Counted from the first letter of the stretch, positions 26,612 through 47,845 are shown. The stretch: 64,000 nucleotides of DNA from Pyrinomonadaceae bacterium (GCA_035251975.1 DATFDT010000053.1:762-64761), one strand, 5' to 3'. Notes: a model not told the origin generated them from the sequence alone. Program-made: numbers and translations.

Positions 26612-26711
26612 CTCTGCGTTATCTCTGCGTCCTCTGCGCCTCTGCGGTAAGACAAAACGAAAGCGCATATAAACCGCAGAGGCGCCGAAGACGCAGAGAC
26701 AACGCAGAGAA
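26612..26711. repeat. Family B heptamer-array hairpin element, copy 1
   Basis: CTCTGCGTTATCTCTGCGTCCTCTGCGCCTCTGCGG-TAAGACAAAACGAAAGCGCATATAAA-CCGCAGAGGCGCCGAAGACGCAGAGACAACGCAGAGAA. Confidence 0.9.
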
Positions 26712-26717
26712 CGCGCC

Positions 26718-27152
26718 TCAAGGAACTCGGGTGGCGTTGAAGGTCCCAACCTCCGACCGAAACTTATACGGGCTTTCCTCTTCGTCGACACTCGTGACAA
26801 AGATCAGTTTACCCGTCATCGCGTTCTTCGAAGTAAATTTACCTTTGAAGATGACCGTTCCCAACTCTCGACAGCAAGTGCCGATCGGCAACTCCACTTC
26901 ACCGGAAAAGCTGATACGGTCATTGGTTAACTGTGACCAGGCTGCCGGCTGTGGATCTGCGACCGGCTTGTTATCCGGCGCAGTGTCCTGAAGCAGAAAC
27001 GAAGCGACGCCTTTGGGTTGAGCCACCAATATTAAGTTCTTTTCCACGCCCGCCATAACAAACTTTACTTGCCAGCGACCGACGGGATCAGCAGCCGGTT
27101 GCTGACCGGCAAGCAACGAGATGAGCAGTAAGCAAAGGAGACCGAGTTTCAT
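26718..27152 (-). CDS. Hypothetical small secreted protein
   Basis: 144 aa with signal peptide MKLGLLCLLLISLLAG. Beta-rich, with no motif I recognise. Confidence 0.55.
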   Translation of the reverse strand: MKLGLLCLLLISLLAGQQPAADPVGRWQVKFVMAGVEKNLILVAQPKGVASFLLQDTAPDNKPVADPQPAAWSQLTNDRISFSGEVELPIGTCCRELGTVIFKGKFTSKNAMTGKLIFVTSVDEEESPYKFRSEVGTFNATRVP

Positions 27153-27155
27153 TTT

Positions 27156-27869
27156 TTATGGCTTAACTACGTACATCGTGGGCATCCAGCCAAACGGGAA
27201 AGTTCTCAGTTTCGCATCCGGCATGAACTCTTTGATAGCACGAGTTTCACCGGGCGCAACCTCGTGATTGAACTGATCAAAAATAAATACTCCGCCACTT
27301 GTCAAACGCGGCCAGAAATGTTCGAGCGTCGAACGAACAACTTCATAGATGCCGCAATCGGCAAAGATTAGTTTGAATTGGAGGTGCGAGTTTTCAGTGA
27401 AGAAATCCCCGAGTTGTTTCGTGACATCGAGATTGTGAATATGAACGATGTTGTCGAGTTGCTGCGCCTTGATCAGGTTTAGCACTCGATCGTAATCCTC
27501 GTAGCATTCGCCTTGCGCCACATACTTTTCTTCTTCAGTGATCTTCGCTCCCTGGAACCAATCAAAGCCATGCACGAGCGTCAACGACTCAGGCTCGAAA
27601 AGCTTCATTAGTTTGGCGAAAAACAAGCTGCCCGCGCCTTTATAAACTCCGATCTCGGCGACGTGGCCCGCCACACCAAGGGTCATCTTGTACGCTTCAT
27701 ACAGCGAAATGAAACGCGCAATCGTCAGATGACCGGCGAATGCCGGAAAGTAGTGAATGTAATCGCTGACGTCGAATCCCAGCGACATGATCTGCTGCAA
27801 GCCTTCATAATATTCCGGCTTCCGCGAAGCAAATTTCCTCAGCTCGTATTTTCCTGTGGCCTCTGTCAT
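27156..27869 (-). CDS. SAM-dependent O-methyltransferase, TylF/MycF (macrocin-O-methyltransferase) family
   Basis: EIGVYKGAGSLFFAKL and FADCGIYEVVRSTLEHFWPRLTSGGVFIFDQF match the TylF-type fold and metal-site region. Confidence 0.7.
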   Translation of the reverse strand: MTEATGKYELRKFASRKPEYYEGLQQIMSLGFDVSDYIHYFPAFAGHLTIARFISLYEAYKMTLGVAGHVAEIGVYKGAGSLFFAKLMKLFEPESLTLVHGFDWFQGAKITEEEKYVAQGECYEDYDRVLNLIKAQQLDNIVHIHNLDVTKQLGDFFTENSHLQFKLIFADCGIYEVVRSTLEHFWPRLTSGGVFIFDQFNHEVAPGETRAIKEFMPDAKLRTFPFGWMPTMYVVKP

Positions 27870-27880
27870 ACGTGTTCAGA

Positions 27881-27903
27881 TACCACAGATTACACGGATT
27901 TTA
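27881..27903. repeat. Family C half-element (single arm)
   Basis: ATACCACAGATTACACGGATTTT matches one arm of ATCCACAGATTACACAGATTC. No partner arm is present. Confidence 0.6.
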
Positions 27904-27904
27904 C

Positions 27905-27942
27905 AAAAAACATCCCGTCCGCCTGGAAGACGAACGGGATGT
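27905..27942 (-). terminator. Rho-independent terminator downstream of the beta-helix gene
   Basis: The minus strand reads CATCCCGTTCG-TCTTCCAGG-CGGACGGGATG followed by TTTTTTG. Confidence 0.75.
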
Positions 27943-27979
27943 GTTATGCGTGGACAGTTAAGTTCGGGGGGTTCGGAAC

Positions 27980-28900
27980 TTAGCTGACTCCCTTGGCACT
28001 GCAGCCCGGGCAGTTGTCAACACCGTTGGAGAAGATCCTGTTGTTACCCCAGGTATCGATTACCCCTCCGGCTCCGACTAATGCTCCGGTACCCGAATTC
28101 GTGAAGATGTCGTTACCGTTTAGGCGGACGACTGAACCACCAGTAAGCGCCTGCACACCATTGGTGTTGTTGTGAATCTGAGAATTGGTGATATTAACCA
28201 CAGCCACGCCGCCAATTCCTTCAGCGAGCACACCGTTGTTGGTATTGCCCGAGAACACACAATGATCGGCGGTAAGACGTGAGTTGCCCTTCGCGTGTAT
28301 GCCCTGGGCGTTACCGTTGAATGACGAGTTCTCGAACGTTCCCTTGATCTGTCCACTCGATGTTGTGGAATCGACCCCGGCGCCGGTATTGTCCCTGATT
28401 ACCGTATTTCTGATAGTTATCTGTAGATCGTTAGTCTCAGCAATACGGATACCCGGTCCCGCGAATCTGAACATTACACAGTCTTCAATGTTGACGGTCT
28501 TGGCCTGAAGAATATTCATCGCTCGAAGCCCGTTACAGAAGCCGTTAATGGAAATACCACGGATCGTGATCACGTCAGTTGATGCTGCGTTGATGGTAAT
28601 CCCGGTAGTTAGAGAAGCCAGAATGGAAGCAAACGTTCCAGTGCCATCGAGGGTGATCGACTTGGTGATCGTAACGGCGCCAAAACCACCTGGATCCAGC
28701 GCATCAATCTCACCGCAAGCGGCAGTTTTCGAAATCGCGCCGGCCCATGTTTTACAGGGGGCCGTGCGGCTACACGGGTTAGCGTCGTCACCCACACCTG
28801 ATACCCAGGTGCGCGACGCCTGCGCGTTCGCAATTGAGGCAAAAGCGAAAGTGAAGATCGCAATTGCGACAAACTTGAGCGTGAACCGAAACTTGTTCAT
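27980..28900 (-). CDS. Secreted right-handed parallel beta-helix repeat protein (pectate-lyase/epimerase-like fold)
   Basis: Start set at the ATG at 28900 (GGAGATTCAAAATG) giving signal peptide MNKFRFTLKFVAIAIFTFAFASIANA. Repeated IT..N..I..N / G...N.G coils run throughout. Confidence 0.7.
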   Translation of the reverse strand: MNKFRFTLKFVAIAIFTFAFASIANAQASRTWVSGVGDDANPCSRTAPCKTWAGAISKTAACGEIDALDPGGFGAVTITKSITLDGTGTFASILASLTTGITINAASTDVITIRGISINGFCNGLRAMNILQAKTVNIEDCVMFRFAGPGIRIAETNDLQITIRNTVIRDNTGAGVDSTTSSGQIKGTFENSSFNGNAQGIHAKGNSRLTADHCVFSGNTNNGVLAEGIGGVAVVNITNSQIHNNTNGVQALTGGSVVRLNGNDIFTNSGTGALVGAGGVIDTWGNNRIFSNGVDNCPGCSAKGVS

Positions 28901-29160: not shown

Positions 29161-29196
29161 CAAGCGAGGAATGCTCAGTTGAGCATTCCTCACTTG
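29161..29196 (-). terminator. Strong hairpin 10 nt downstream of the HYR-protein stop codon (possible terminator)
   Basis: CAAGCGAGGAATGCTCA-GT-TGAGCATTCCTCACTTG, a 17-bp stem with one G-U position. Only a distal U-rich run follows (TTTAATTATTTT). Confidence 0.5.
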
Positions 29197-34373: not shown

Positions 34374-34375
34374 GC

Positions 34376-34590
34376 ATAGCTCGCGAAGCGAGCGACAGCA
34401 TAAAGCCTGGGGCGCAAGCCCCAGGATCGAGTTAATTAAATAGCGCCGAGCCCGTGAAACGGGCGACAGCGTTCGAACATTATGCGCTGTCGCCCGCTCT
34501 GCGGGCTCCACCAATAATGGGATTCGTGATCCGGGGGCTCGCGCCCCAGGCTTTATGCTTATGCCCGCTTCGCGGGCTAAGCCTTGCGGG
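34376..34590. repeat. Family F composite palindrome: two inverted ~85-90-nt modules, each made of short GC-rich hairpins
   Basis: AGCATAAAGCCTGGGGCGCAAGCCCCAGGATC (34396-) pairs with GATCCGGGGGCTCGCGCCCCAGGCTTTATGCT (-34559). GAGCCCGTGAAACGGGCGACAGCG pairs with CGCTGTCGCCCGCTCTGCGGGCTC around the centre TTCGAACATTAT. Confidence 0.85.
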
Positions 34591-34648: not shown

Positions 34649-37015
34649 ATGGCTATTCAAGATAATCGATTGATTCCTGTTTCGGGTCTGGACCGTGCGG
34701 TGGACCGGCCGCTCACGGACCTGGCCCCCAAGCCCTACGGTGGCTACGGCGCTTCCGCCAACGACCCAAACGCCCTCAAGGATTATTTGTCGGTCATCCT
34801 CAAGCGAAAATGGTTGATTTTGAGTCTCGTACTGGTGGTCACTTCGTTGGTGGCAATACAGTCATTTAGAACACCCTCAATCTATGAGGGCGAATCGATC
34901 ATTAGAATTCAACAAAAACAGCCCAACATCCTTGCAACCGACAAGATCATTATCAACGGCCAGAACGATCCCAATTTCTGGGGCACGCAGCTAAAGTTGT
35001 TGCAAAACCCGGCACTCGCTCGCCAGGTGGTTCTCACCCTCGACCTGCCGCATAACCCAGCGTTTTTCGGTGGCCAGTCACAGAAGGGCATCTTCGATGC
35101 TCTGCGCCGTTTGTTTTCGGCGCCAAAGCCAGCCGCGACGCCAGGTGCAGCGCCCGGTGGATTGTCGGTCGTAACTGAGGTTCAGCCTTCTTTAGCGAAG
35201 TTAACGCCCGAAGAGATCGAGAAGTTAGAAGCTTACGAAGACGCGATTATCGGCGGGGAAACAATCGAGCCGATTCCAAATACTAATCTCGTAAAGATTA
35301 TCTACAGGCATTCCGATCCCGAATTGGCGCAGAAAATCGCCAACACCCTGGCCGAGGTCTTCAAAAACTACAATCTCGCAATAGCCACTGAAGGGTCGAC
35401 GAAGGCTGAAGACCAACTGGCTAAAGAGATCGCCAGACTGCAAACGCAGAACAAGCAGGATCAGGAAATACTTTGGAATTACGCTAAGAGTCACAATCTG
35501 TCACTGGTGATTGGAAATCAACCCAATCTCGAGGTCACACGGCTCGCGACCTTGAGCGGTCAGGTATTGGAAGCTGAAAACGCGACAAAGCAACTGAAAG
35601 CGCAGCTTGACGCCGCGAAAAAGGAACCAGATCCGTTTTCGGTTCCTGCCGTTAATGCGTCTCCTCGAGTCGAGAAATTACGCGAGCGCATCTCGACCCT
35701 CAAAGAACAACGCGAAGCTCTTTTGGTCACTTACAAGCCGGAATGGCCGGCGGTGAAGAAACTCGACGCTCAAATCAAAGGACTCGAGGCGGAACTGCAA
35801 AGGGCCCCTGAAGAAATCATTACCTCGATGCAACGAAATTACGAGGCCGCGGCCCAAAAGGAAACCCAATTGCGTCGCTCCTACGAAAGCCAGAAAGCGA
35901 CGACCACCCAGCAAACGCGAGATCAGATTGATTTGCTGGCCATGACGCAGAATCTCGAGACCAACAAGCAGCTTTTGGCTACTTTGCTGCAACGTCAACG
36001 TGAGTTCGATCTATCGAATGGAAACGGTTCGAATGAAGTAAGTATCGCTAACTACAGCAGGTTGCCAAAGGAGCCGGTTGGTCCACCGCGATTGCGAAAC
36101 ATAATCATCGGGCTGTTGCTCTCGTTGGGAGGCGGAATCGGCCTGGCTCTGCTGCTCGACTTCCTCGACGATACCGTGAAATCTGTCGAGGATGTCGATC
36201 GTTACATTCACCTGCCGGCGCTCGCTTTGATCCCGTCGGGACACGACCGTCGCTTGCCGGGTGTGCGTAGTGGAGCCCCCGCGCCGGTGTCGAACACAAC
36301 TGCCCTCGCCATGATCACGGATGTTCGTTCGCCAATTACTGAGGCGTATCGACACCTGCGAACGTCGTTGCTGTTATCGTCTGCCGGAAAACCTCCCAAG
36401 AAGATCCTGATCACTTCCAGTCAGCCCGCCGAAGGCAAGACTACAACCGGGATCAATACGGCTTTTATGCTCGCGCAAACCGGAGCCCAGGTGTTAATGA
36501 TCGATTGCGACCTGCGGCGGCCACGGCTGCATGCACAGTTTGACCTGCCTAACACGAAGGGACTAACAACCTGGCTTTCAGGTGAGAAGAACCTCGACGG
36601 TTTGATTCAAACATGTGAAAAGGCGCCGAATCTAAAAGTGTTGACCTGCGGCCCCGTACCTCCGAATCCGGCCGAGTTGCTGGGTTCCCAGGAGATGCGG
36701 AAGCTTTTGGATATTCTCAGCGAGCAATACGCGCACATCATCATCGATTCGCCGCCCGCTATCTCTTTCACTGATGCGTCGATCTTGTCGACGATGGTGG
36801 ATGGAGTAATTCTCGTGGTCCACGGCGGACGAAGCTCGAGGGCCGTCGTGCGACGTGCAAAACAACAACTGCAAGACGTCGGGGCACACATCTTTGGTGT
36901 GGTCTTGAACAACGTCAAGGTCGAGACGCACGATGAGTATTATTATTCCCGTTACTACTCCAACTACTACCAGACAGAAGCAGACGCTGATCAAGGTGCA
37001 GGAGAGACTGCATAG
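34649..37015 (+). CDS. Polysaccharide co-polymerase / tyrosine autokinase (PCP-2a, Wzc/GumC/EpsB-like)
   Basis: The N-terminal Wzz-type TM segment is RKWLILSLVLVVTSLVAI. A long coiled-coil periplasmic region and a second TM segment follow. The kinase has Walker A SSQPAEGKTTT, A' MIDCDLRRP and B IIIDSPP, and ends in a Tyr-rich tail DEYYYSRYYSNYYQ. Confidence 0.9.
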   Translation: MAIQDNRLIPVSGLDRAVDRPLTDLAPKPYGGYGASANDPNALKDYLSVILKRKWLILSLVLVVTSLVAIQSFRTPSIYEGESIIRIQQKQPNILATDKIIINGQNDPNFWGTQLKLLQNPALARQVVLTLDLPHNPAFFGGQSQKGIFDALRRLFSAPKPAATPGAAPGGLSVVTEVQPSLAKLTPEEIEKLEAYEDAIIGGETIEPIPNTNLVKIIYRHSDPELAQKIANTLAEVFKNYNLAIATEGSTKAEDQLAKEIARLQTQNKQDQEILWNYAKSHNLSLVIGNQPNLEVTRLATLSGQVLEAENATKQLKAQLDAAKKEPDPFSVPAVNASPRVEKLRERISTLKEQREALLVTYKPEWPAVKKLDAQIKGLEAELQRAPEEIITSMQRNYEAAAQKETQLRRSYESQKATTTQQTRDQIDLLAMTQNLETNKQLLATLLQRQREFDLSNGNGSNEVSIANYSRLPKEPVGPPRLRNIIIGLLLSLGGGIGLALLLDFLDDTVKSVEDVDRYIHLPALALIPSGHDRRLPGVRSGAPAPVSNTTALAMITDVRSPITEAYRHLRTSLLLSSAGKPPKKILITSSQPAEGKTTTGINTAFMLAQTGAQVLMIDCDLRRPRLHAQFDLPNTKGLTTWLSGEKNLDGLIQTCEKAPNLKVLTCGPVPPNPAELLGSQEMRKLLDILSEQYAHIIIDSPPAISFTDASILSTMVDGVILVVHGGRSSRAVVRRAKQQLQDVGAHIFGVVLNNVKVETHDEYYYSRYYSNYYQTEADADQGAGETA

Positions 37016-37024
37016 CTGATTTGG

Positions 37025-37093
37025 CCACAAAAAGGCACAAAAGGCACAAAATAGAAGACTAAGAATCTTTGTGCTTTTTGTGCATTTTTGTGG
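37025..37093. repeat. Family D heptamer-array hairpin element (single copy in the window)
   Basis: CCACAAAAAGGCACAAAAGGCACAAAA-loop-CTTTGTGCTTTTTGTGCATTTTTGTGG, imperfect. Confidence 0.85.
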
Positions 37094-37101
37094 CTTGAGA
37101 C

Positions 37102-38229
37102 TTGAGAGAAATGAAGGTTCCGTTAATAGATTTACAGGCACAGTATGTTTCGGTACGCGATGCGATTCGCCTGGCGGTTGATCGCGTTTTCGAGACTCAA
37201 CAGTTTGTGATGGGTCCGGAAGTCGCCGCGCTTGAAGCGGAAGTCGCAGCTTATTGCCAAACGAATGAGGCGATCGGATGCGCTTCCGGTTCTGACGCTT
37301 TGCTGCTGGCGCTGATGGCCCTGAACGTTGGTCCGGAAGACGAAGTCATTACGACGCCGTTTAGTTTTTTCGCTACGGCCAGCGCGATTGCACGGGTGGG
37401 CGCGCGACCTGTTTTCGTCGACATCGATCCACTTACGTACAACTTGAATGTCGATCGAATCTCGGCAGCGATCACTTCGCGCACCCGGGTGGTGATTCCA
37501 GTGCACTTGTACGGTCAATGTGCCGAGATGGACCAGATACTGGCTCTGTGTAAAGCGAAAGAGCTTGTTGTACTCGAGGATGCCGCACAGGCGATCGGCG
37601 CCGAAGATCGCGGGCGGCGTGCTGGTTCGATGGGTGTGGCCGGTTGTTTTAGCTTTTATCCCAGTAAGAATCTTGGTGCGGCAGGAGATGCGGGGATCAT
37701 CACGACCAGCGATCCGGCTTTTGCAACCAGAGTGCGAAGGCTGCGTGTACACGGTGGTCTAACCGAGTATCAACACGTTGAGGTGGGAATCAACAGTCGT
37801 ATTGATGCGCTTCAGGCTGTCGTGCTTCGCGCCAAGCTGCCTCACTTGGATGGCTGGTCCAACGCGCGAGCGGAGAAGGCGCAAATCTATTCGCACCTGT
37901 TGGAAGGCGCGAAGCTGAGTTTCAAGCTGGATCCGCCGTTCATTAAGCCTGACAGTCGTCACATCTTTCATCAATACGTTGTCCGAGTTCCCGATCATCG
38001 CGACGCGCTGATGGCGCACTTAAAAGCGCGCGAGATCGCGACCAAGATTTATTACCCGATTCCGCTGCATCTGCAGGAGTGCTTTGCATACCTGGGCTAC
38101 AAAGAAGGCGCTTTCCCCGAGGCCGAGAAAGCCGCTCGGGAAACTTTCGCTCTTCCTCTTTACCCTGAGCTTGCGTTGGAGCAACAGGAATACGTCGTGA
38201 ACGCGATTAGGGATTTCAACTCTGCGTAA
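37102..38229 (+). CDS. DegT/DnrJ/EryC1/StrS-family PLP-dependent NDP-sugar aminotransferase
   Basis: 375 aa. GCASGSDALLLALMAL, and FSFYPSKNLGAAGDAGIITT with the catalytic Lys. The last codons and stop lie inside repeat B2. Confidence 0.85.
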   Translation: MREMKVPLIDLQAQYVSVRDAIRLAVDRVFETQQFVMGPEVAALEAEVAAYCQTNEAIGCASGSDALLLALMALNVGPEDEVITTPFSFFATASAIARVGARPVFVDIDPLTYNLNVDRISAAITSRTRVVIPVHLYGQCAEMDQILALCKAKELVVLEDAAQAIGAEDRGRRAGSMGVAGCFSFYPSKNLGAAGDAGIITTSDPAFATRVRRLRVHGGLTEYQHVEVGINSRIDALQAVVLRAKLPHLDGWSNARAEKAQIYSHLLEGAKLSFKLDPPFIKPDSRHIFHQYVVRVPDHRDALMAHLKAREIATKIYYPIPLHLQECFAYLGYKEGAFPEAEKAARETFALPLYPELALEQQEYVVNAIRDFNSA

Positions 38230-38309
38230 TCTCTGCGTTCTCTGCGCCTCTGCGGTAAAAAAGCATGTAAACCACAGAGGCGCAGAGGACGCAGAGGCTA
38301 CGCAGAGAA
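38220..38309. repeat. Family B hairpin element, copy 2 (contains one family-A-type heptamer)
   Basis: CTCTGCGTAATCTCTGCGTTCTCTGCGCCTCTGCGG-TAAAAAAGCATGTAAA-CCACAGAGGCGCAGAGGACGCAGAGGCTACGCAGAGAA. Confidence 0.9.
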
Positions 38310-38326
38310 ATTCGTAGGAACGTCTG

Positions 38327-39307
38327 ATGCCAGAACAACCAAGAGTGTTGGTGACGGGAGCCGGTGGTTTCATCGGTCACCATTTGACCAATTATCTGTT
38401 GGACCGGGGCTACTGGGTCAGAGGCGTTGATATCAAGAGACCGGAGTTTGAACCGACGCGCGCTGACGAATTTCTTCTACTTGATCTCACCAACGCTGAG
38501 AACTGTCTGCGCGCGACGCACGAGATTGATGAAGTTTACGGGCTGGCCGCAAACATGGGCGGCATCGGATTTATCGAAAATAACAAAGCAGTAATAGTTC
38601 GCGACAACACACTCATTAACTTAAACACGATCGAAGCCGCGCGTCTGAATGGTGTTAAGCGTTACCTCTACACCTCGAGCGCCTGTATTTATCCGGCTTA
38701 CCTGCAGAACGAAACGAATGTCGCGCCTTTGAAAGAAAGCGACGCGTATCCAGCCGATGCCGAGGACGGTTACGGTTGGGAAAAACTCTACATGGAAAGA
38801 GTTTGTCGCCACTACACCGAAGACTTCGGACTCGAAACACGCGTCGTCAGATTTCATAACATCTTTGGTCCACTCGGCACCTACGACGGCGGCCGCGAGA
38901 AATCACCGGCAGCGATCTGCCGCAAGGTGGCGCTTGCAAATCATGGCGATGAAATTGAAGTTTGGGGAGACGGGGAACAAACGCGGTCTTACTGTTACAT
39001 CGACGATTGCGTTGAAGGAATCTACCGGTTGATGCGCAGCGATCATCGCGAGCCTATCAACCTTGGCCAGGATCGAATGATCTCTGTCAATGAGCTCGTC
39101 GACATGGTTGCAGAGATTGCCGGCAAGCAGATCGGTAAACGTTACGATTTGACCAAGCCGCAGGGCGTCAGAGGTCGCAACAGCGACAACACTCGTCTGC
39201 GCGAGGTTTTGGATTGGGAACCCGCGATTTCCCTCGAGGAAGGATTAGCTCGCACCTACCACTGGATCGCCGCAGAACTCACCAGAGCAGTGCAAGCAGC
39301 ACCATGA
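38327..39307 (+). CDS. GDP-mannose 3,5-epimerase-like extended SDR
   Basis: VTGAGGFIGHH, NMGGIGFIENN, SSACIYP, YGWEKL, RFHNIFGPLGTYDGGREKSPAAICRK, WGDGEQTRS, GVRGRNSDN. These strings closely follow those I recall from plant GME. Confidence 0.75.
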   Translation: MPEQPRVLVTGAGGFIGHHLTNYLLDRGYWVRGVDIKRPEFEPTRADEFLLLDLTNAENCLRATHEIDEVYGLAANMGGIGFIENNKAVIVRDNTLINLNTIEAARLNGVKRYLYTSSACIYPAYLQNETNVAPLKESDAYPADAEDGYGWEKLYMERVCRHYTEDFGLETRVVRFHNIFGPLGTYDGGREKSPAAICRKVALANHGDEIEVWGDGEQTRSYCYIDDCVEGIYRLMRSDHREPINLGQDRMISVNELVDMVAEIAGKQIGKRYDLTKPQGVRGRNSDNTRLREVLDWEPAISLEEGLARTYHWIAAELTRAVQAAP

Positions 39308-40551
39308 AGATGTCGCTCGACGGCCGGCGCGTTCTGTTCATCTCCTACAACGGCATGCTTGAACCGTTAGGTCAAACGCAGGTGCTTCCGTACCTGCGGA
39401 AGCTGGCCCAACGAGGTGTGAAGTTCACCCTGCTGAGCTTTGAAAAGCCTGGCGCCTTCACTGAGAAAGGCCAGCGTAGCTGTGCGGCACTGAAACAGGA
39501 GTTAATGGACCAGGGAATCGAATGGCACTGGCTGCGATATCACCAGCGACCATCACTACCCGCTACTCTTTTCGACGTGTTAGCAGGCATCCGTTTCGCC
39601 AGCCGTCTGGTCCAACGAAACAAAATCGAGTTAGTGCACGCACGCTCCTACATACCAGCCACGATCGCGCTCCGTTTGAAGCGAAAGTTTGGGATCAAAA
39701 TGATCTTCGACCTCCGCGGATTGATGGCTGAAGAGTATGTCGATGCGAAGCACTGGCCTGAAGGCGGCTTGCGCTATCGCGTTACAAAATCGACGGAGCG
39801 GCGGATTCTGGCGGGCACCGATGCGGTGGTAACGCTGACTGAGCGGATCTGGCCCATCATCAAAGAATGGAAAGGGCTGAAGGGCCGGGACGTGGCGCAT
39901 GCAGTGGTACCCTGTTGCGTCGATCTTTCCTTATTCACGTTCAAAGAGCAGGAGCGTGCAAGGTTACGCGCAGAGCTAGGGCTGGATGATCGGTTTACGT
40001 TTGTCTACAGTGGTTCTCTCGACGGCTGGTACCTGACCGAAGAGATGGCTGATTTTTTTGCGAGCGTGGTCCGGAAACGAAATGATGCACATCTGCTCTG
40101 GCTTACCACTGGAAGTCGCGAGCGAGTCAGACAACTGATGAGCGCGCGTGGCATTAGTGAAGATCATTTTTCCATTCGCAGCGTGGCGCCAAAGGAAATG
40201 CCTTCGTATTTGGCTGCCGGCGACGTTGGTCTCTCATTCATCAAACGTTGTTTCTCCAAGTTGGCTTCGTCGCCGACGAAGAATGGTGAATACCTTGCGT
40301 GCGGGCTGCCGATTCTCATTAACTCCGGAATCGGAGACTCGGATGGTTTGACACACGAATCCTCCGCGGCAATCCTGATTGACGACTTCACTGAGCGAGA
40401 CTTTGACGGCGCATGGAATGCAGTTCAGGCATTAGCGGATGATCCAAACATCAAAGCGAAAGCCCGTGCGACCGCGGAGAAAGTCTTTGATCTTAACAGC
40501 GTTGGCGCGGAGCGATACGCGTGCCTCTACGAAACCCTGCTGACCTCATGA
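39304..40551 (+). CDS. Glycosyltransferase family 4-like (GT-B)
   Basis: Start set at the ATG at 39304 (ATGA overlap with the upstream stop), giving MKMSLDGRRVLFISYNG. The C-terminal half reads SPTKNGEYLACGLPILIN. Confidence 0.7.
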   Translation: MKMSLDGRRVLFISYNGMLEPLGQTQVLPYLRKLAQRGVKFTLLSFEKPGAFTEKGQRSCAALKQELMDQGIEWHWLRYHQRPSLPATLFDVLAGIRFASRLVQRNKIELVHARSYIPATIALRLKRKFGIKMIFDLRGLMAEEYVDAKHWPEGGLRYRVTKSTERRILAGTDAVVTLTERIWPIIKEWKGLKGRDVAHAVVPCCVDLSLFTFKEQERARLRAELGLDDRFTFVYSGSLDGWYLTEEMADFFASVVRKRNDAHLLWLTTGSRERVRQLMSARGISEDHFSIRSVAPKEMPSYLAAGDVGLSFIKRCFSKLASSPTKNGEYLACGLPILINSGIGDSDGLTHESSAAILIDDFTERDFDGAWNAVQALADDPNIKAKARATAEKVFDLNSVGAERYACLYETLLTS

Positions 40552-41633
40552 GAGTGTTAGGATTGGCCACATATCCAGTCGAGGCGGCGGCAACCAGGTT
40601 CCGAATGATCCAATTCGTTGAACCTTTAGCCGAGCAGGGGATTGAGCTCTCCGTTTATCCGTTTATCGATTCCAGCCTTTACCGATCGCTCTACAACCGA
40701 TCGCAGTGGCCGCGGACAGCGTTGGGCTTGAGCCTTGCGGCGGTTCGGCGGGTACGCGAGCTAGTGCGTGCGCGGAAGGCGGATGTCGTGTTTGTGCAAC
40801 GCGAGGCGATGATGTTTGGACCACCCCTCGTGGAATGGTTGACCGTAAACCTGCACGGGTGTCCGATGGTGCTCGATCTGGATGATGCGACGTATGTCTC
40901 GTACAAGAGTCCGACTTACGGCCGCATCGGAAGCATGCTTAAATGGTTTAGCAAGACTAATGATTTGATTCGCTGGTCGCGGCTGGTTACCTGTGGCAAT
41001 CGTGAGATCGCAGCTTATGTGACGAGTAAGGGACGGGAGGCTGTCGTGATTCCCACCGTGGTTGACACGACGTGCTTTCGACCGTTAGCTGAGCGGCCGG
41101 AGAGCGATGTGCCCGTTATTGGCTGGATAGGTACGCACTCGACTTTTCCTTACGTGAAAACAATCTTTCCCGTGCTTGAGCGACTCGCGCGCGATCACCG
41201 GTTTCGCTTGCGACTGGTCGGAACCGGAGCGGATAACGTTGTAATACCCGGTGTGGAGATTGAGAACCTGGGATGGAAACTGGAGCGGGAGATTGCAGAT
41301 TTTCAGTCATTCGACATCGGAATTTATCCGATCGTGGAGGATGACTGGTCGGTTGGGAAGTCGTGTTTTAAGGCGGTTCAGTATATGGCTGTCGGAGTTC
41401 CTTTTGTCGTCAGCCCGGTGGGAGCTTGTCACGATATAGCGGAGGCGAACCGGACGCATTTTGTGGCGCGCAGTCAGGAAGAATGGTACGAGCATCTTTC
41501 CCGACTCTTGAGCGACGAGGGTTTAAGGCAGCGGATGGGTGACGCTGGGCGGGGTTATGCGGTCGAGCATTACAGTATCGAAGCGAACGTTCAGAAATTG
41601 GCCGACGCATTAAGAGCCGCAACCTCTGCATAA
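40548..41633 (+). CDS. Glycosyltransferase family 4-like (GT-B)
   Basis: Start set at the ATG at 40548 (ATGA overlap), giving MRVLGLATYPVE. C-terminal KSCFKAVQYMAVGVPFVVSPVG. Confidence 0.7.
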   Translation: MRVLGLATYPVEAAATRFRMIQFVEPLAEQGIELSVYPFIDSSLYRSLYNRSQWPRTALGLSLAAVRRVRELVRARKADVVFVQREAMMFGPPLVEWLTVNLHGCPMVLDLDDATYVSYKSPTYGRIGSMLKWFSKTNDLIRWSRLVTCGNREIAAYVTSKGREAVVIPTVVDTTCFRPLAERPESDVPVIGWIGTHSTFPYVKTIFPVLERLARDHRFRLRLVGTGADNVVIPGVEIENLGWKLEREIADFQSFDIGIYPIVEDDWSVGKSCFKAVQYMAVGVPFVVSPVGACHDIAEANRTHFVARSQEEWYEHLSRLLSDEGLRQRMGDAGRGYAVEHYSIEANVQKLADALRAATSA

Positions 41634-41637
41634 CCTT

Positions 41638-41731
41638 TGAATAGAACAAGTCAGGAAGAGGGGCTTGCCCCCGCTCGTCCAATCCAAGCAGCAGCGGGGG
41701 CGAAGCCCCTCTTCCTGACTTGTTCTATTCA
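41638..41731. repeat. Family G: isolated 94-bp hairpin with a ~38-bp stem
   Basis: TGAATAGAACAAGTCAGGAAGAGGGGCTTGCCCCCGCT-17 nt-AGCGGGGGCGAAGCCCCTCTTCCTGACTTGTTCTATTCA, with one bulge. Starts 5 nt after a stop codon. Confidence 0.9.
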
Positions 41732-41787
41732 GAGGTACGCAGAGCCACTGCAATCGTTAACAAGTTTGTGTATATTGACAGGTCGAC

Positions 41788-43491
41788 ATGTATATCGTTG
41801 GTTTAACTACACTTGGCGATTCGGCCGCTAGCCTGATAAAGGACGGCGAAATCGTTGCTGCGGCTGAGGAAGAGCGCTTCTCGCGTCGCAAACATCACAG
41901 CGGCTTTCCTTACAACGCGATGCAGTATTGTCTCGACCAGGCAGGCATCGGAATCGCCGACGTCGCGCATATTGGTCTGTACTGGAAACCCTGGGTGTTA
42001 CGTCATAAGGCACTCCAGGCGTTAAAGTCCGCCGCCATCTCGCGCGACATGTTCAAGGCCCGCGTCGATCGCGGCGTCACTCAGGTTGGTGAGAGCTATC
42101 TCGGAATGTTGCGGCACCCGCGCCGAATTCGAGAACACTTCGGCAACAGCAATTTCAAGTTTCACTTTCTCGAACATCACCAGTGTCACGCTGCGAGCGC
42201 ATTTTTCGTTTCCGGTTTCGAGCAATCAGCCATCATGACGTGGGACGGAACGGGTGAAGACACCACGACCCTGTTTTCACGCGGCGACGATCGAACGATT
42301 CAACCCTTGAAGAGGATCAAGCTTCCTCACTCGCTGGGCCAGTTCTATTCGGCTGTTACCAACTATCTCGGGTTTGACATGTTCGAAGGTGACGAGTGGA
42401 AGGTAATGGGACTCGCTGCTTACGGTAAGCCTGAATACTATGATTTCTTTGCGAAGAAGGTGCTTTCAGTAAACGGCGATCATGATTTTCGGGTAGACAT
42501 TCGGGTGTTGGACCATCATTTGGCGAAGTACTACCAGTTCAGCGAAGCGTTGACGAAGGTGCTCGGTCCGCCGCGCGCGAAGGGCGAGGAGCTCAGCCAA
42601 AAGCATTGGGACGTCGCCGCCAGTGCACAGAAAGTTCTGGAAGATACCGCGCTTCACTTGCTCGCAGGATTGTATGAGCAGACCGGCAGTGAGAATCTCT
42701 GTATGGCTGGTGGCGTGGCGTTCAATTCTGTCATGAATGGCCGCATCATGACGGAGACGCCTTTCAAGCGCTTCTTTATTCAGCCGGCCGCTGGTGACGC
42801 GGGCTGCTCGCTCGGCGCCGCGCTACTCGTTTGGCACAGTCGATTGAAACAACCGCGCAAGTTCCGGATGGAGCATGCGTACTATGGTCCGGGGTTTAGT
42901 TCGGAAGAGTGTGCCGCAGCGTTGCGTGCTGCGGGATTAAAGTTTGAAACGCTGCCGGACGAACAAATGCTTCCGCGAATCGCGAAGATGTTGGCGGATG
43001 GTGCAATCATTGGCTGGTTTCAGGGGCGTATGGAGTTTGGCCCACGCGCGCTTGGTAATCGTAGCTTCATTGCCGATCCGCGCCGCGAAGACATGCGTGA
43101 GCTACTGAATAAAAAGGTGAAGCTGCGCGAATGGTTTAGACCGTTGGCGCCGTCTATGAAAGAAGAAGCTGCGAACGAGCTTTTTGGGCATCCTCATTAC
43201 GATCCATTCATGATTACAGTGTTGAATGTGGTCGAGGACAAACGGGGCAGAATACCGTCTGTCGTTCACGTGGATGGCACTGCGCGTCCGCAAACGGTGA
43301 GCAGGCATATTAATCCACGATACTGGCAGCTAATTAACGAGTTTGAAAAGTTAACCGGGGTGCCACTTCTGCTTAACACGTCATTCAACGTGCAGGAGCC
43401 AATCGTTCTCTCTCCTGCCGACGCTATCAACACATTTAGCAAGGCGAGCTTCGATGCGTTGGTACTGGAGAATCACCTCGTCGTGCGTTAA
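41788..43491 (+). CDS. Carbamoyltransferase, NodU/CmcH/TobZ family
   Basis: 567 aa. MYIVGL..GDSAASLIKDGEIVAAAEEERFSRRKH, HHQCHAASAF, and the C-terminal YrdC-like half with LLNTSFN. Confidence 0.85.
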   Translation: MYIVGLTTLGDSAASLIKDGEIVAAAEEERFSRRKHHSGFPYNAMQYCLDQAGIGIADVAHIGLYWKPWVLRHKALQALKSAAISRDMFKARVDRGVTQVGESYLGMLRHPRRIREHFGNSNFKFHFLEHHQCHAASAFFVSGFEQSAIMTWDGTGEDTTTLFSRGDDRTIQPLKRIKLPHSLGQFYSAVTNYLGFDMFEGDEWKVMGLAAYGKPEYYDFFAKKVLSVNGDHDFRVDIRVLDHHLAKYYQFSEALTKVLGPPRAKGEELSQKHWDVAASAQKVLEDTALHLLAGLYEQTGSENLCMAGGVAFNSVMNGRIMTETPFKRFFIQPAAGDAGCSLGAALLVWHSRLKQPRKFRMEHAYYGPGFSSEECAAALRAAGLKFETLPDEQMLPRIAKMLADGAIIGWFQGRMEFGPRALGNRSFIADPRREDMRELLNKKVKLREWFRPLAPSMKEEAANELFGHPHYDPFMITVLNVVEDKRGRIPSVVHVDGTARPQTVSRHINPRYWQLINEFEKLTGVPLLLNTSFNVQEPIVLSPADAINTFSKASFDALVLENHLVVR

Positions 43492-43495
43492 TTGC

Positions 43496-43596
43496 TTCTC
43501 TGTGCAACCTCGGTGTTCTCTGTGTCTCCGTGGTGAGTTGTTGCTCAGAATCAGTTAACCACAGAGACACAGAGAACACAGAGGTTGCACAGAGAA
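43496..43596. repeat. Family A hairpin element, copy 6 (long-loop form)
   Basis: TTCTCTGTGCAACCTCGGTGTTCTCTGTGTCTCCGTGG-TGAGTTGTTGCTCAGAATCAGTTAA-CCACAGAGACACAGAGAACACAGAGGTTGCACAGAGAA. Confidence 0.9.
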
Positions 43597-43627
43597 ATCT
43601 GAACTGGATCACTGCTAGAAATTCCAA

Positions 43628-44968
43628 ATGAGGGCAGTTTTATTATTTGTTTTGTTGATCGTCTGCGCCGTGATCGTGTTCGCGGTGCCTGCGATAGTTG
43701 CGCCTTTCACCGAATACTCGACCTATGACGCAGGTCAGGCGGTGTTGTTCTGTCTGACCCTGGCCATAATTGTCGGCTGCTTCGTCTATCGAAATAAAGA
43801 ATACCGTTCATTCCTGCTGCAACTCTTTGGCTGGGCCCTGGTGGTGCGAATGCTCGTCGCCACCGGCATCTTCATATTCAACGTGCAGGAGTTTTTTGGC
43901 GGTGATGCTATTACGTACGACTATTTCGGTTACGCGCAGATGAAGGCGTGGCAAGGAGATTCTTACTATTTAGCTATCGCTAATCACTTCATGGAAGGAC
44001 AGGCGTCTGCATGGGGCATGATCAACATGGTCGCGCTCGTGTACTCAATAATCGGACGCAACACCCTGGCGATACAGTTTGTTAATTCGATCATCGGTGC
44101 AGCAACGGCAGTTCTGGTCTTTAGTTGTGCTCAGCACGTTTACCAGAATGTTCGCGTCGCCAAAATAGCCGCCATCTACGTCGCGTTTTTCCCGTCGCTG
44201 GTGCTGTGGTCGGCTCAAGGATTGAAAGATGCTCCGATAGTCTTCTTTCTGGTCCTCGCGATTCTGGCAAGTCTCCGTTTGAGTGAAAAACTCTCGGTGA
44301 AGCATGGTGTCATACTGATCGCCGCCCTGTTTTCGATTCTCAGTTTACGGTTTTATGTTTTTTACATGATTGTGGTGGCGATTGCCGGTGGATTTTTGAT
44401 TGGTTTGCAGAAGATCACACCGACGAATTTTGCGCGCCAGTTTGTTGTCATCCTGATGATGGGCGTGTCACTCACTTATCTTGGCGTGACTCGCTACGCA
44501 AATGCGCAATTCAGTCGTTATGCCACCTTGGAGGCAGTGAACCGAAGCCGCGCTGATCTGGCGCGCGCCGGATCCGGGTTTGGCCAGGAAGTGGACGTGT
44601 CAACAACCGAGGGCGCGATTTCCACAATTCCGATTGGTTTGATCTACCTGCTGTTTGCCCCATTTCCCTGGCAACTCGTTTCATTGCGGCAAAGCATCAC
44701 GCTTCCGGAGATGATTATCTGGTGGCTCTCATTTCCCTTAATGGTGCTTGGTGTTTGGTATTCAATTAAATACCGCTTACGCCAGATCTCGCCGATTCTG
44801 ATTTTCACAACGATGCTTTCAATCGCTTACTCGGTATTTCAGGGAAACGTCGGCACGGCTTATCGCCAGCGCGCGCAGTTGCTGGTGTTTTATTTTATCT
44901 TTGTAGCGGTCGGGTTTGTGTTGTTGAAAGAGAAGAAAGAGAACCTGGATCGGTTTAGAAAGCGTTAA
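43628..44968 (+). CDS. Polytopic inner-membrane protein, function unknown (GT-C- or Wzy-like candidate)
   Basis: 446 aa with at least 10 hydrophobic segments and a loop GGDAITYDYFGYAQMKAW. No diagnostic motif recognised. Confidence 0.5.
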   Translation: MRAVLLFVLLIVCAVIVFAVPAIVAPFTEYSTYDAGQAVLFCLTLAIIVGCFVYRNKEYRSFLLQLFGWALVVRMLVATGIFIFNVQEFFGGDAITYDYFGYAQMKAWQGDSYYLAIANHFMEGQASAWGMINMVALVYSIIGRNTLAIQFVNSIIGAATAVLVFSCAQHVYQNVRVAKIAAIYVAFFPSLVLWSAQGLKDAPIVFFLVLAILASLRLSEKLSVKHGVILIAALFSILSLRFYVFYMIVVAIAGGFLIGLQKITPTNFARQFVVILMMGVSLTYLGVTRYANAQFSRYATLEAVNRSRADLARAGSGFGQEVDVSTTEGAISTIPIGLIYLLFAPFPWQLVSLRQSITLPEMIIWWLSFPLMVLGVWYSIKYRLRQISPILIFTTMLSIAYSVFQGNVGTAYRQRAQLLVFYFIFVAVGFVLLKEKKENLDRFRKR

Positions 44969-44973
44969 AACTC

Positions 44974-45074
44974 TTCTCTGTGAAACCTCTGTGTTCTCTG
45001 TGTCTCCGTGGTGAGTTATTGCTGCGAACCAGTTAACCATAGAGACACAGAGAACACAGAGGCTGCGCAGAGAA
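44974..45074. repeat. Family A hairpin element, copy 7 (long-loop form, degenerate)
   Basis: TTCTCTGTGAAACCTCTGTGTTCTCTGTGTCTCCGTGG-TGAGTTATTGCTGCGAACCAGTTAA-CCATAGAGACACAGAGAACACAGAGGCTGCGCAGAGAA. Confidence 0.9.
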
Positions 45075-45094
45075 ATCAGTAGGGGCGACCAGAA

Positions 45095-46975
45095 ATGTGT
45101 GGAATTGTAGGTATCGTTCGTAACGACGGGAAGTCGATTGACGAAGATCTGTTAGCGCGGATGAATAACGCGATTCGTCATCGCGGTCCCGATGACGATG
45201 GCTTCTACGTCAATGGTTCGGTTGGTCTCGGTATGCGTCGCCTCGCGATCATCGATCTCAAAGGCGGAGCACAACCGATCCACAACCAGGACCGCAGCTC
45301 ATGGATCGTCTTCAACGGCGAGATCTACAACTATCTCGAGCTCCGCGAGAAGTTGGAAAAACTAGGTCACACCTTCTACACCAACAGCGACACCGAAGCT
45401 ATCGTTCATGCTTACGATCAATTCGGTGTTGATTGTCCCAAACACCTGCGCGGGATGTTTGCCTTCGCAATCTGGAATGAACGAAGCCAGGAACTGTTCC
45501 TCGCCCGTGACCGCGTCGGTAAAAAGCCTGTTTTATACGCCCACGTAAATGGACAACTCATCTTCGGATCGGAGTTCAGCGCGCTGCTGCTTCATCCGGA
45601 TGTGAGTCGAGACATTCAACCGGAAGCACTGGATTACTATCTTTCATTCATGTGCATCCCGGCGCCGCTGACTGCTTACCGCGCGATCCGGAAACTCGAG
45701 CCTGGTCACTGGCTGCGTTGGCGCCACGGGGAAATCGAGCTGCAGCGTTACTGGCAGCCGGATTTCACCAAGAAGATCGAGCTGAGTGAGGAAGAAGCAG
45801 GCGAACGAACGGTTGAGATTCTACGCGATGCTGTGCGCGTGCGTTTGATGTCGGAGGTGCCACTCGGTGCGTTTCTCTCAGGCGGCATCGATTCGAGCGC
45901 CGTTGTGGCGTTGATGAGCCAGGAGTCGAGCGAGCGAGTCAAAACATTCTCAATCGGTTTTGATGAACAGGACTTCAGCGAACTACATCATGCGCGACGG
46001 ATCGCCGAGCACGTCGGCGCCGATCATCACGAGTTTATCGTGCGGCCTGACGCTCTCGAAGTATTGCCCACCCTCGTCGAACATTATGGCGAGCCTTACG
46101 CGGATTCATCAGCAGTGCCCACCTATTACGTCGCGAAAGAAACTCGCAAACACGTCACAGTTGCTTTGAACGGCGATGGCGGCGACGAATCGTTTGCAGG
46201 TTACGAGCGATACATCGCGATGGGATTGACGGAAAAGTACCGCCGCGTGCCGTCGTTCCTGCGTGAGTCGTTGATCAAGGAAACGGTAAACCTGATTCCG
46301 AGCTCGCCGCTAAAGCGCAGCCGAGTGAAGTCTGCGAAGCGTTTGCTCGACGCAGTAGCGCTGCCGCGAGTCGATCGCTACGCGCGTTGGGTAAGTGTTT
46401 TCAACGAGCAGACCAAGCAGCCGCTCTATTCGGATCGTTTTCGAGAGCAAACACAGGCAGCCGATGCGACTGGAATACTGGCGGAATGGTTCAGGCGCGC
46501 CAACGGCATCGGCGTCGTGGATGCAATGCTGCTGACGGATCAGATGACTTACCTGCCTAACGACCTGCTGGTGAAAGTCGATATTGCGACGATGGCAGTT
46601 TCACTCGAGGCGCGTTCGCCCTTTCTCGATCATCATGTGATCGAGTTTGCTGCGAGTTTGCCGCAAAATCTTAAACTGCGAAGACTGACGAGCAAGTATC
46701 TTTTGAAGAAAGTCCTGCGCAAGCTGTTGCCGAGTGAGAATCTTAAGCGACGAAAAATGGGTTTCGGTGTTCCGGTCGGACACTGGTTTCGTGGCAAGAT
46801 GCAGCCGTTTCTGCGAGAAGTACTCCTTTCAGAGAAGGCGTTGCGCAGAGGCATGTTCCAGCCGGAGACGGTAAGGCAGTTGATCGAATTGCACGTACGT
46901 GGCGAACGCGATTATTCGCAACAGCTTTGGACACTTTTGATGCTCGAATTGTGGTTCAACCGATTCATTGACTGA
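45095..46975 (+). CDS. asnB: Asparagine synthase (glutamine-hydrolysing) family amidotransferase
   Basis: The N-terminal nucleophile context is MCGIVG. The Ntn-amidotransferase domain is followed by the PP-loop motif SGGIDSS. 626 aa. Confidence 0.85.
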   Translation: MCGIVGIVRNDGKSIDEDLLARMNNAIRHRGPDDDGFYVNGSVGLGMRRLAIIDLKGGAQPIHNQDRSSWIVFNGEIYNYLELREKLEKLGHTFYTNSDTEAIVHAYDQFGVDCPKHLRGMFAFAIWNERSQELFLARDRVGKKPVLYAHVNGQLIFGSEFSALLLHPDVSRDIQPEALDYYLSFMCIPAPLTAYRAIRKLEPGHWLRWRHGEIELQRYWQPDFTKKIELSEEEAGERTVEILRDAVRVRLMSEVPLGAFLSGGIDSSAVVALMSQESSERVKTFSIGFDEQDFSELHHARRIAEHVGADHHEFIVRPDALEVLPTLVEHYGEPYADSSAVPTYYVAKETRKHVTVALNGDGGDESFAGYERYIAMGLTEKYRRVPSFLRESLIKETVNLIPSSPLKRSRVKSAKRLLDAVALPRVDRYARWVSVFNEQTKQPLYSDRFREQTQAADATGILAEWFRRANGIGVVDAMLLTDQMTYLPNDLLVKVDIATMAVSLEARSPFLDHHVIEFAASLPQNLKLRRLTSKYLLKKVLRKLLPSENLKRRKMGFGVPVGHWFRGKMQPFLREVLLSEKALRRGMFQPETVRQLIELHVRGERDYSQQLWTLLMLELWFNRFID

Positions 46976-46997
46976 TCTCTGCAGAGATCGCAGAGAA
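46974..46997. repeat. Mini-palindrome with family-B-like tail
   Basis: GATCTCTGCAGAGATC is a perfect 16-bp palindrome. It overlaps the asnB stop and is followed by GCAGAGAA. Confidence 0.6.
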
Positions 46998-47014
46998 AAC
47001 AACGGGGGGAAAAG

Positions 47015-47743
47015 TTGAAAGGTGTAGTGCTAGCTGGTGGCCTGGGGACGAGGTTGAGGCCCCTGACTTCCGTAACAAACAAACATCTGCTGCCGGTGTA
47101 CGACCAGCCGATGATCTATTACCCGCTCCAGACACTCGTGAATGCTGGTATCACCGACATCATGGTTGTGACTGGTGGCAATTCCGCCGGTGAGTTCCTG
47201 CGCTTGTTGGGGAACGGCAAGGCATTCGGCCTCAAGCACCTCAACTATACGTACCAGGAAGGTGAAGGCGGCATCGCGCAGGCACTCTCGCTGGTGGAAC
47301 ACTTTTGCGCGGGTGAACCCGTTTGTGTTGTGCTGGGCGACAACATTATCGAGGGAAACATACGTGCGGCGGTCGCTGATTATCATCGCCAGGGTCGCGG
47401 CGCGAAGATCATGTTGAAGAAGGTTCCGGATCCGCAACGTTTCGGCGTGCCGAGGCTCGAAGGCAAGCGCGTGGTCCGTATCGACGAGAAGCCGGCGAAA
47501 CCACAGTCAGACTATGCAGTCATCGGCATTTACATGTACGACGAGACGGTCTACGACATCATTCGAGATCTGAAACCGTCCGGCCGCGGCGAGCTCGAGA
47601 TCACAGACGTCAACAACGCCTACATCGAGCGTGATGCAATGACATGGGACGAGCTCGAAGGCTGGTGGACCGACGCCGGGACTTTCGAAAGTCTCCTGCA
47701 CGCCTCGAACCTTGTAGCTGAAACAGGCGCCAACAAACATTAA
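47015..47743 (+). CDS. rmlA: Glucose-1-phosphate thymidylyltransferase, short (SpsI-like) form
   Basis: The TTG start gives MKGVVLAGGLGTRLRPLTSVTNKHLLPVYDQPMIYYPL. GDNI is present. 242 aa. Confidence 0.75.
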   Translation: MKGVVLAGGLGTRLRPLTSVTNKHLLPVYDQPMIYYPLQTLVNAGITDIMVVTGGNSAGEFLRLLGNGKAFGLKHLNYTYQEGEGGIAQALSLVEHFCAGEPVCVVLGDNIIEGNIRAAVADYHRQGRGAKIMLKKVPDPQRFGVPRLEGKRVVRIDEKPAKPQSDYAVIGIYMYDETVYDIIRDLKPSGRGELEITDVNNAYIERDAMTWDELEGWWTDAGTFESLLHASNLVAETGANKH

Positions 47744-47744
47744 A

Positions 47745-47845
47745 CTCTGCGTAATCTCTGCGTTCTCTGCGCCTCTGCGGTAAAAAGAAAACGAGAACGC
47801 ATGTAAACCGCAGAGGCGCAGAGACCGCAAAGACTACGCAGAGAA
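47745..47845. repeat. Family B hairpin element, copy 3
   Basis: CTCTGCGTAATCTCTGCGTTCTCTGCGCCTCTGCGG-TAAAAAGAAAACGAGAACGCATGTAAA-CCGCAGAGGCGCAGAGACCGCAAAGACTACGCAGAGAA. Confidence 0.9.

Follow-up and report, generated by a model that had tools for sequence, protein, structure and literature searches.

Heptamer-built hairpin repeats in a Pyrinomonadaceae polysaccharide-synthesis locus share their arms with inverted repeats that bracket GxxExxY genes

Tn7 and Mu are multi-gene elements with known transposases, and their ends contain several repeated transposase-binding sites of about 20 bp. Repetitive extragenic palindromic (REP) sequences are defined as imperfect palindromes of 20-40 nt with a GTAG (or CGTC) tetranucleotide at one end (PMC3733652). 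Repeats of heptamer type are also on record, among them TAACTGA of the Beggiatoaceae (PMC4679880) and, as cited in PMC3733652, the small dispersed repeats of Nostoc (Elhai 2008). Here, we describe hairpin repeats in a 64-kb polysaccharide-synthesis locus of a Pyrinomonadaceae bacterium (Acidobacteriota; GCA_035251975.1, DATFDT010000053.1:762-64761), the whole of which, 64,000 nt in length, is referred to below as the window. Twelve very stable hairpins are present in the window, nine belonging to family A, with arms of CTCTGTG units, and three to family B, with arms of CTCTGCG units, and in both families an arm possesses four units separated by spacers of 4, 2, and 1 nt. We present evidence that families A and B belong to a superfamily of inverted repeats that are built of heptamers and occur in many phyla, and that the same arms bracket genes of the GxxExxY (PDDEXK_3) family. 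The superfamily is apparently undescribed so far: no description of the arms or of their link to GxxExxY genes was found in the literature searched, where most subscription journals were outside reach, and an earlier description is possible.

The arm of these repeats is a polar module in which a head (TTNACC type, most commonly TTCACC) is followed by three or four C-R-C-N-R-A-G units, with spacers that, counted from the head, are 1, 2, and, before the fourth unit, most often 4 nt long. The arms of families A and B conform to this plan, with heads of TT(A/C)ACC or TAAACC and units at 1/2/4 spacing. A three-unit scan allowing any base at the variable position, and restricted to one genome per species, returned more than 119 stretches in Acidobacteriota, Planctomycetota, Chloroflexota, Cyanobacteria, Verrucomicrobiota, Proteobacteria, Firmicutes, and other phyla, and the same scan of IMG/VR viral contigs returned at least 120. 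The richest viral contigs (L228 and L236, IMGVR_UViG_3300048839_001685; L217) contain up to 15 pattern matches in 37 kb, and a small phage ORF lies between arms in three viral loci (L210, L260, and L288). Within the window, the four-unit B pattern has 6 matches and the four-unit A pattern 15, one of them the right arm of the second B copy with three mismatches; 0.00 matches were expected for either pattern in 100 dinucleotide-preserving shuffles. The heptamer, which a first-pass annotation made from the sequence alone had singled out as the meaningful unit, is supported as a real building block. That annotation had also regarded B as A altered by one substitution in every unit, on an identical geometry. 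Among four-unit arms, the 1/2/4 arrangement is the commonest one throughout the phyla, including loci picked by protein similarity only, and since it is a feature of the superfamily it gives no sign that B was recently derived from A. Family A arms with the CAAC spacer likewise occur in other Acidobacteriota genomes (L009, L012, L013, and L073). The number of units per arm ranges from 2 to 5, and single arms without a partner exist. In one locus (L004, 1161-1290), three same-direction purine-rich arms stand in a row, with units CGCAGAG, GCCAAGG, and CGCCAAAGA, and no partner arm lies within 90 nt.

A search for an associated nucleic-acid enzyme gene, which the first-pass annotation had proposed, was productive. 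In a Pyrinomonadaceae genome (L073, the same locus as L208), two 41-nt family A arms separated by 446 nt enclose a 134-amino acid gene that matches PDDEXK_3 of Pfam (E = 2.9e-40) and TIGR04256 'GxxExxY' (E = 2.1e-41). The association was assessed on 80 metagenome GxxExxY loci fetched by protein similarity alone, independently of the repeats, using a stringent rule in which an arm required at least three units within 170 nt. Arms were found on both sides of 41 of the 80 genes, 36 with a purine-rich arm upstream and a pyrimidine-rich arm downstream and 5 with the reverse layout; a further 22 fell into the class with an arm on at least one side, and 17 had none, several of these still carrying inverted repeats of a related kind. 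Among 700 control windows of 380 nt from the same loci, none was both-sided, 26 were partial, and 674 were without arms. The gaps between paired arms are bimodal, at 0-200 nt (the hairpins) and at 375-530 nt, and nearly all gaps of the latter size hold a GxxExxY gene. A four-helix-bundle protein of the 23S rRNA intervening-sequence type, considered as a possible second cargo, was dropped, as the paired arms 370-530 nt apart nearly all enclose GxxExxY.

Arms elsewhere in a locus tend to be of the same unit type as its cassette (18 of 39, where 6.5 were expected). Family A arms bracket the GxxExxY gene within the lineage of the window (L073/L208, L334, and L123-L130); for family B of the window, the counterparts seen were CG-type cassettes in unassigned metagenome contigs, one of which (L128) has the 4/2/1 geometry. 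At one orthologous site, related contigs carry a gene with a downstream hairpin (L130), an arm, gene, and hairpin (L125), or an arm, gene, and arm (L123 and L126). These forms can be connected through simple deletions, which leave the spread of heads-in hairpins unexplained.

The GxxExxY/PDDEXK_3 family is very large, with at least 8000 relatives at E <= 1e-10. Residues D69, E79, and K81 are conserved in the alignments, as expected of an active PD-(D/E)XK nuclease. A Foldseek search of the PDB with an AlphaFold2 model of a GxxExxY protein gave no match at E <= 0.001, and a profile search of PDB sequences gave none either, so that no structural neighbour could be named. Identity of the cassettes with a defence system was rejected, PADLOC being without a hit.

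The difference between families A and B, a T-to-C change in every unit, had been read as concerted within each element, and this holds well beyond the window. In genome loci, 96 of 132 arms are pure (61 all-TG and 35 all-CG), far above the approximately 36 expected if units varied independently. Pure arms make up 129 of 184 in viral loci and 42 of 48 in Pyrinomonadaceae/Blastocatellia loci, and 45 of 63 GxxExxY cassettes are fully pure, most of the rest being nearly so. The state of the variable base is therefore close to a binary character of the element. Mixed arms account for 12-30% across samples. In most mixed hairpins a single unit is unmatched, as if by recent point mutation, and the variable position is Watson-Crick paired in 156 of 164 unit pairs. 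In three elements (L045, L110, and L205) a mixed pattern is mirrored in both arms, and in one viral contig mixed arms, A-G-G for example, recur at several sites as multi-copy families. Mixed arms are thus copied as faithfully as pure ones, so either unit state is compatible with arm copying, and the variable base seems to be tolerated rather than discriminated. Whole-arm inheritance together with kept complementarity between arms best accounts for the concerted pattern, and two readers are not needed. Host G+C content was rejected as the cause of the TG/CG difference: locus G+C is 0.547 versus 0.530 for the two states, and both types coexist in the window. Deamination of 5-methylcytosine at CpG, converting B to A, was set aside, as all units in the two arms would have to undergo an identical strand-specific change and a CpG methylase common to the phyla would also be needed.

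The occupancy of individual gene junctions was followed in four syntenic loci (L203-L206) in which the GT39 protein is 81-94% identical to that of the window. The junction that holds the A copy at 44974 is empty in L205 (5 nt) and L204 (22 nt) and carries the remnant ACAGAGAAATCA in L203. At the junction of the third B copy, an orthologous B element is present in L205 and other repeat families in L204 and L203. The junction of the A copy at 52062 is occupied by an A element in L204 and by a mixed element of CG type, with spacers of its own, in L205; L203 has an A stump and L206 nothing there. Other periodic hairpin families, with units CACAGAT, CACAAAA, and CACGAAA, occupy the same junctions, and one compensatory double change separates the orthologous copies of L204 and the window. 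The flanking gene order is the same in relatives with or without a hairpin. Short intergenic gaps are thus colonised and cleared again and again. The A-armed GxxExxY cassette itself occupies one conserved site in L208 and L334, whereas L332 has lost the cassette and retains the stump CTGTGGTGGAC. A search of the orthologous cassette site for an 'empty hairpin' gave only deletion remnants or other families in the compared loci.

The explanation that we favour, with about even confidence, is that A and B are gene-less members, similar to miniature inverted-repeat transposable elements (MITEs) and to REP doublets forming hairpins (REPINs), of a GxxExxY-associated repeat superfamily. Under this proposal, the two families would represent two sequence lineages of interspersed, gene-less hairpin repeats, the long form of which would consist of an inverted arm pair around a GxxExxY gene and the short form of two arms and a variable loop only. 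A protein of the nuclease family, or another trans-acting factor, would recognise the heptamer array on DNA, and recognition would tolerate either purine at unit position 2, the position of the TG/CG difference. Recognised arms would then be copied or recombined whole, and their complementarity would be kept by selection or by the copying of one arm from the other. The elements would persist just past stop codons, where they would be harmless to genes, with any effects on mRNA being secondary. We infer from the bracketing that the GxxExxY protein acts on the arms, and that the gene-less elements are mobilised in trans. A broader proposal is that GxxExxY and its heptamer arms constitute a new class of minimal selfish element, in which a PD-(D/E)XK nuclease of approximately 125 amino acids would read the rows of 7-nt units, or the cruciform, and would drive the spread, or the homing-like, repair-mediated copying, of its own cassette and of the gene-less hairpins, across phyla and into phage; this we regard as tentative and rather doubtful.

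Several observations weigh against the favoured explanation. No GxxExxY gene lies within the 64-kb window, and none was detected in arm-rich viral loci totalling 1.0 Mb, the arms of which bracket assorted unrelated small phage genes; consequently, either the mobilising factor acts in trans or the gene is cargo and not the driver. The GxxExxY family has no function listed for it, its nuclease activity is putative, and the AlphaFold2 model has a pLDDT of 63.7 and a poor C-terminal third. Most cassettes, and most hairpins outside the window, have their heads facing outward, whereas in the hairpins of the window the arm heads face the loop. The A-armed cassette stands at the same site in genomes with an 82%-identical neighbouring protein and is therefore not highly mobile. 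Finally, no target-site duplication or clean empty/filled pair was found at the compared junctions, which are too short and too often re-occupied to be aligned.

The most serious of the alternatives is that the hairpins act in RNA, their 35-40 bp duplex serving as an RNase III site or as a barrier to 3' exonucleases that tunes cistron stability; in the cassettes, pairing of both arms into a panhandle would free the mRNA of the enclosed GxxExxY gene. The setting of the elements fits such a role, as all 12 lie between co-directional genes just past stop codons, with predicted RNA folding energies of -45 to -82 kcal/mol, like arms stand between genes in phage contigs, and the double change between L204 and the window is compensatory. 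Selection on pairing in the transcript would, however, favour G·U-compatible mismatches on the sense strand, and no such bias is found, the counts being 75 sense versus 82 antisense in 44 cassettes and 19 versus 15 on the two strands of the window. A purely structural task also leaves the cross-phylum conservation of heptamer, head, and spacing unexplained, as it does partnerless single arms; the orientation of the B loop is constant on the plus strand regardless of gene direction; and Rfam gave no match. These results favour a DNA-level entity with possible side effects on mRNA, and we consider an RNA function unlikely. If the arms are DNA sites, they might instead be binding arrays for a host DNA-binding protein, nucleoid-associated or acting in replication, with no relation to GxxExxY and with the hairpin as a by-product. 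Such a protein would account for the periodic units and the conserved head, for single arms and same-direction runs such as that in L004, and for the head TGTGGATAA of a sister family in the window, which equals the DnaA-box 9-mer. It would not account for the strong and specific bracketing of GxxExxY genes or for the complementarity that the spacers too retain between arms, and presence that is polymorphic at the same junctions among close relatives is a poor fit with a conserved host function. We therefore consider host binding arrays improbable.

Two further alternatives concern the origin of the A and B states. The first-pass annotation had raised the prospect of two paralogous proteins whose specificity differs at one heptamer base, and the near all-or-none state of the cassettes agrees with it, as do the nine most similar GxxExxY pairs (at least 80% identity), which agree in state, and the nearest-neighbour proteins, which agree in 44 of 63 cases. 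Agreement between close pairs is, however, what shared descent alone gives, and the proteins of the two states are otherwise intermingled: on average, pairs are 59.9% identical when they share a state and 59.0% when they differ in it, cross-state pairs reach 78% identity, and changes of state are seen among proteins of 72-78% identity. After correction for 173 tests, no column of the alignment follows TG/CG (best Fisher p = 0.0013), with 56-63 sequences giving modest power. Mixed arms that propagate as families, and mirrored chimeras, also argue against two readers, which we regard as the least probable of the explanations considered. The same annotation had suggested that the arms arose by templated expansion from a seed heptamer. 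Taken as an account of the present copies, each hairpin would have grown in place by slippage or templated reiteration, and the A and B copies would be independent local expansions. The variable unit number, which is unequal between the two arms of the elements at 15629 and 17596 and of both L205 copies, is in keeping with this, as are short remnants or seeds at 46976-46997 and in L203. Yet unrelated sites have identical spacers (CAAC/TT/T or TAAT/TT/C), identical heads, and, for B, identical loop motifs, and CAAC-spaced A arms are met again in other Acidobacteriota; independent expansion would not reproduce such details. Growth from a seed may have been the remote origin of the arms, but as the source of the present copies it is very improbable.

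Returning to the elements of the window, B left arms predicted to begin at 26612, 38220, and 47745 were all found there, each with the 4/2/1 geometry. The proposed reading of four CTCTGCG units separated by TAAT, TT, and C and closed by a G is exact for the arms at 38220 and 47745, whereas at 26612 the spacers are TTAT, TC, and C. The mirrored right arms are present, with one or two degenerate units (CGCCGAAG at 26685 and CGCAAAG at 47827). The first B copy (26610-26711; arms 26612-26648 and 26673-26709) lies between two minus-strand genes, 6 nt from the stop of the ORF at 26718-27152. The second (38218-38309; arms 38220-38256 and 38271-38307) has an innermost right unit of A type (CACAGAG), and the third (47743-47845; arms 47745-47781 and 47807-47843) is the one with an orthologous copy at the same gene junction in L205. 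The A-type unit of the second copy, ACCACAGAGG at 38271-38280, is real and stands opposite a CTCTGCG unit. It had been taken as a sign of exchange between the families; its partner unit is unmatched and still of CG type, and a single G-to-A point change explains it equally well. The converse, one lone CG unit, is found in the right arm of the A copy at 44974-45074.

The remaining A copies lie at 764-863 (loop in reverse orientation), 9593-9678 (left arm degenerate), 15629-15724 and 17596-17683 (each with three units in the left arm and four in the right), 22197-22298, 43496-43596 (between carbamoyltransferase and GT39 (PMT_2) genes, a site that in relatives is empty or holds other repeats), 52062-52153 (near-perfect 40-nt arms), and 54883-54981 (perfect 39-nt arms). 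A CG-type mini remnant or proto-element, TCTCTGCAGAGATCGCAGAGAA, lies at 46976-46997, and L203, L204, and L205 lack it at the corresponding junction. Across the window, arms are 31-41 nt and loops 12-34 nt long, and the elements end in TTCTCTG..CAGAGAA in family A and AACTCTG..CAGAGAA in family B. The proposal that loops are family-specific holds for B, whose motif GGTAA..GCAT(G/A)TAAACC is present in all three copies and in the orthologous L205 copy; the loops of A are heterogeneous, GGTGAGTT..AGTTAACC being common to five of the nine copies.

Each of the 12 elements begins 0-13 nt past the upstream stop codon, and its far end lies 7-72 nt ahead of the next start codon wherever the latter can be placed; for the elements at 17596, 52062, and 54883, the first possible start of the listed ORF lies inside the element and the distance is uncertain. 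The TAA stop of a DegT-family aminotransferase gene (38227-38229) falls in the TAAT spacer of the second B copy, and the last codons of this protein are therefore encoded by the repeat. In the stretch scanned for terminators (37000-56000), all elements lack the T-run of an intrinsic terminator, their stems being followed by AAAT or AAGA, and none is among the 31 terminator-like sites. At the Rfam gathering score, the window had no matches and 20 related loci yielded only tRNAs. The annotated parts of the window yielded neither a nuclease nor a transposase gene. Three contigs from independent metagenome assemblies of the same organism (L002, L331, and L330) end at window positions of approximately 38282, 54895, and 7812, in or beside hairpins or larger palindromes, indicating that the repeats fragment assemblies.

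Other repeat families accompany these elements. A periodic hairpin family with CACAAAA units (GCCACAAAAAGGCACAAAAGGCACAAA .. TTTGTGCTTTTTGTGCATTTTTGTGGC) and outward heads is present at 37024-37094, a GNVR-to-DegT junction at which three genomes (the window, L203, and L206) have kept it. A third periodic family, with CACAGAT or CGCAGAT units (ATCCACAGATTACGCAGATT .. AATCTGTGTAATCTGTGGAT), lies at 50192-50237 and 58662-58726 and at several junctions in L203, L204, and L206, with CA and CG units mixed within arms; its head is often TGTGGATAA, which is identical to the DnaA-box 9-mer TTATCCACA. Hairpins with CACGAAA units (GATCCACGAAAGGACACGAACCAACACGAAA .. TTTCGTGTGATTTCGTGGATC) occur at 12140-12215 of L335 and 12145-12215 of L333, which corresponds to the GxxExxY cassette site of other relatives, and at this site L333 additionally carries a small ORF followed by a PIN-domain gene. 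Larger GC-rich composite inverted repeats, with arms of 55-70 nt, are intergenic at 7850-8045, 19718-19917, 34374-34582, and 41633-41736, and the orthologous junctions of L203-L205 are filled by related copies, in part as tandem arrays (e.g., GCCTGGGGCGCAAGCCCCAGG and CCCAGGGTT..AACCCTGGG). In Thermodesulfobacteriota and others (L043, L084, L087, L113, and L115), a second conserved small hairpin, the stem of which encloses GGGAGA (e.g., TTTGTCGGGAGATACCGACAAA), stands beside the arms.

The conserved periodic DNA architecture described here is a first concrete candidate substrate for the GxxExxY/PDDEXK_3 family, and the same architecture, as gene-less hairpins, is scattered through the intergenic DNA of soil bacteria and phages. 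For annotation, the hairpins not only break assemblies but also supply stop codons to genes, and they probably yield spurious low-complexity ORFs. Several described systems resemble them in part. Like the attC sites of integrons, they are imperfect hairpins with conserved ends and a variable centre that follow the genes of a one-directional array; unlike attC sites, they lack the 3'-terminal GTTRRRY core, an integrase gene was not found in the annotated parts of the window, and the gene order kept by relatives with or without a hairpin indicates that the flanking genes are not integron cassettes. The short tandemly repeated repetitive (STRR) sequences of cyanobacteria and the repeats of the Beggiatoaceae and Nostoc are likewise intergenic, reiterate a seven-base unit, and are in some cases common to distant lineages. 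Those repeats are head-to-tail direct arrays or single hairpins of 21-27 nt, whereas here units are spaced 8-11 nt within two inverted arms behind a conserved head, and a specific gene family is bracketed. With Tn7 and Mu they share the organisation of each end as a polar array, here of three or four short sites, with the two ends inverted, but the units are 7 nt long and the cargo is a single small gene or none.

The relationship of gene-less short forms to gene-carrying long forms with common terminal inverted repeats, together with polymorphic presence, is that of MITEs to insertion sequences. The resemblance ends at the enzyme and the borders, in that no recognised transposase is present, the long form carries PDDEXK_3 only, no direct duplication is seen at the element borders, and in the lineage of the window the heads face the loop, the reverse of the cassette layout. 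The closest analogy is with REP and REPIN sequences and their REP-associated tyrosine transposases (RAYTs). The ends of A and B elements lack the GTAG/CGTC tag of REP sequences, and their arms are 35-40 nt of reiterated heptamer as opposed to a single imperfect palindrome of 20-40 nt. The associated gene also differs, encoding a PD-(D/E)XK-family protein of approximately 125 amino acids rather than a Y1 (HUH) transposase: no Y1 transposase gene flanked by heptamer arms was found in the annotated parts of the window, A-type arms flank PDDEXK_3, and a 125-amino acid Y1_Tnp (IS200/RAYT-like) gene at 1540-1917 of L333 is flanked by unrelated GC-rich palindromes (CCGGTGGTCGGAGCGCAGCGTAGACCACCGG) and not by heptamer arms. 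In both systems, nonetheless, short palindromes occupy intergenic gaps after genes, several families coexist in a genome, hairpin doublets are common, an associated single-copy gene is flanked by inverted copies of the repeat, and no target-site duplications are seen. If the GxxExxY nuclease does mobilise the arms, the two would form a partnership like that of REP and RAYT, built on a different enzyme fold.

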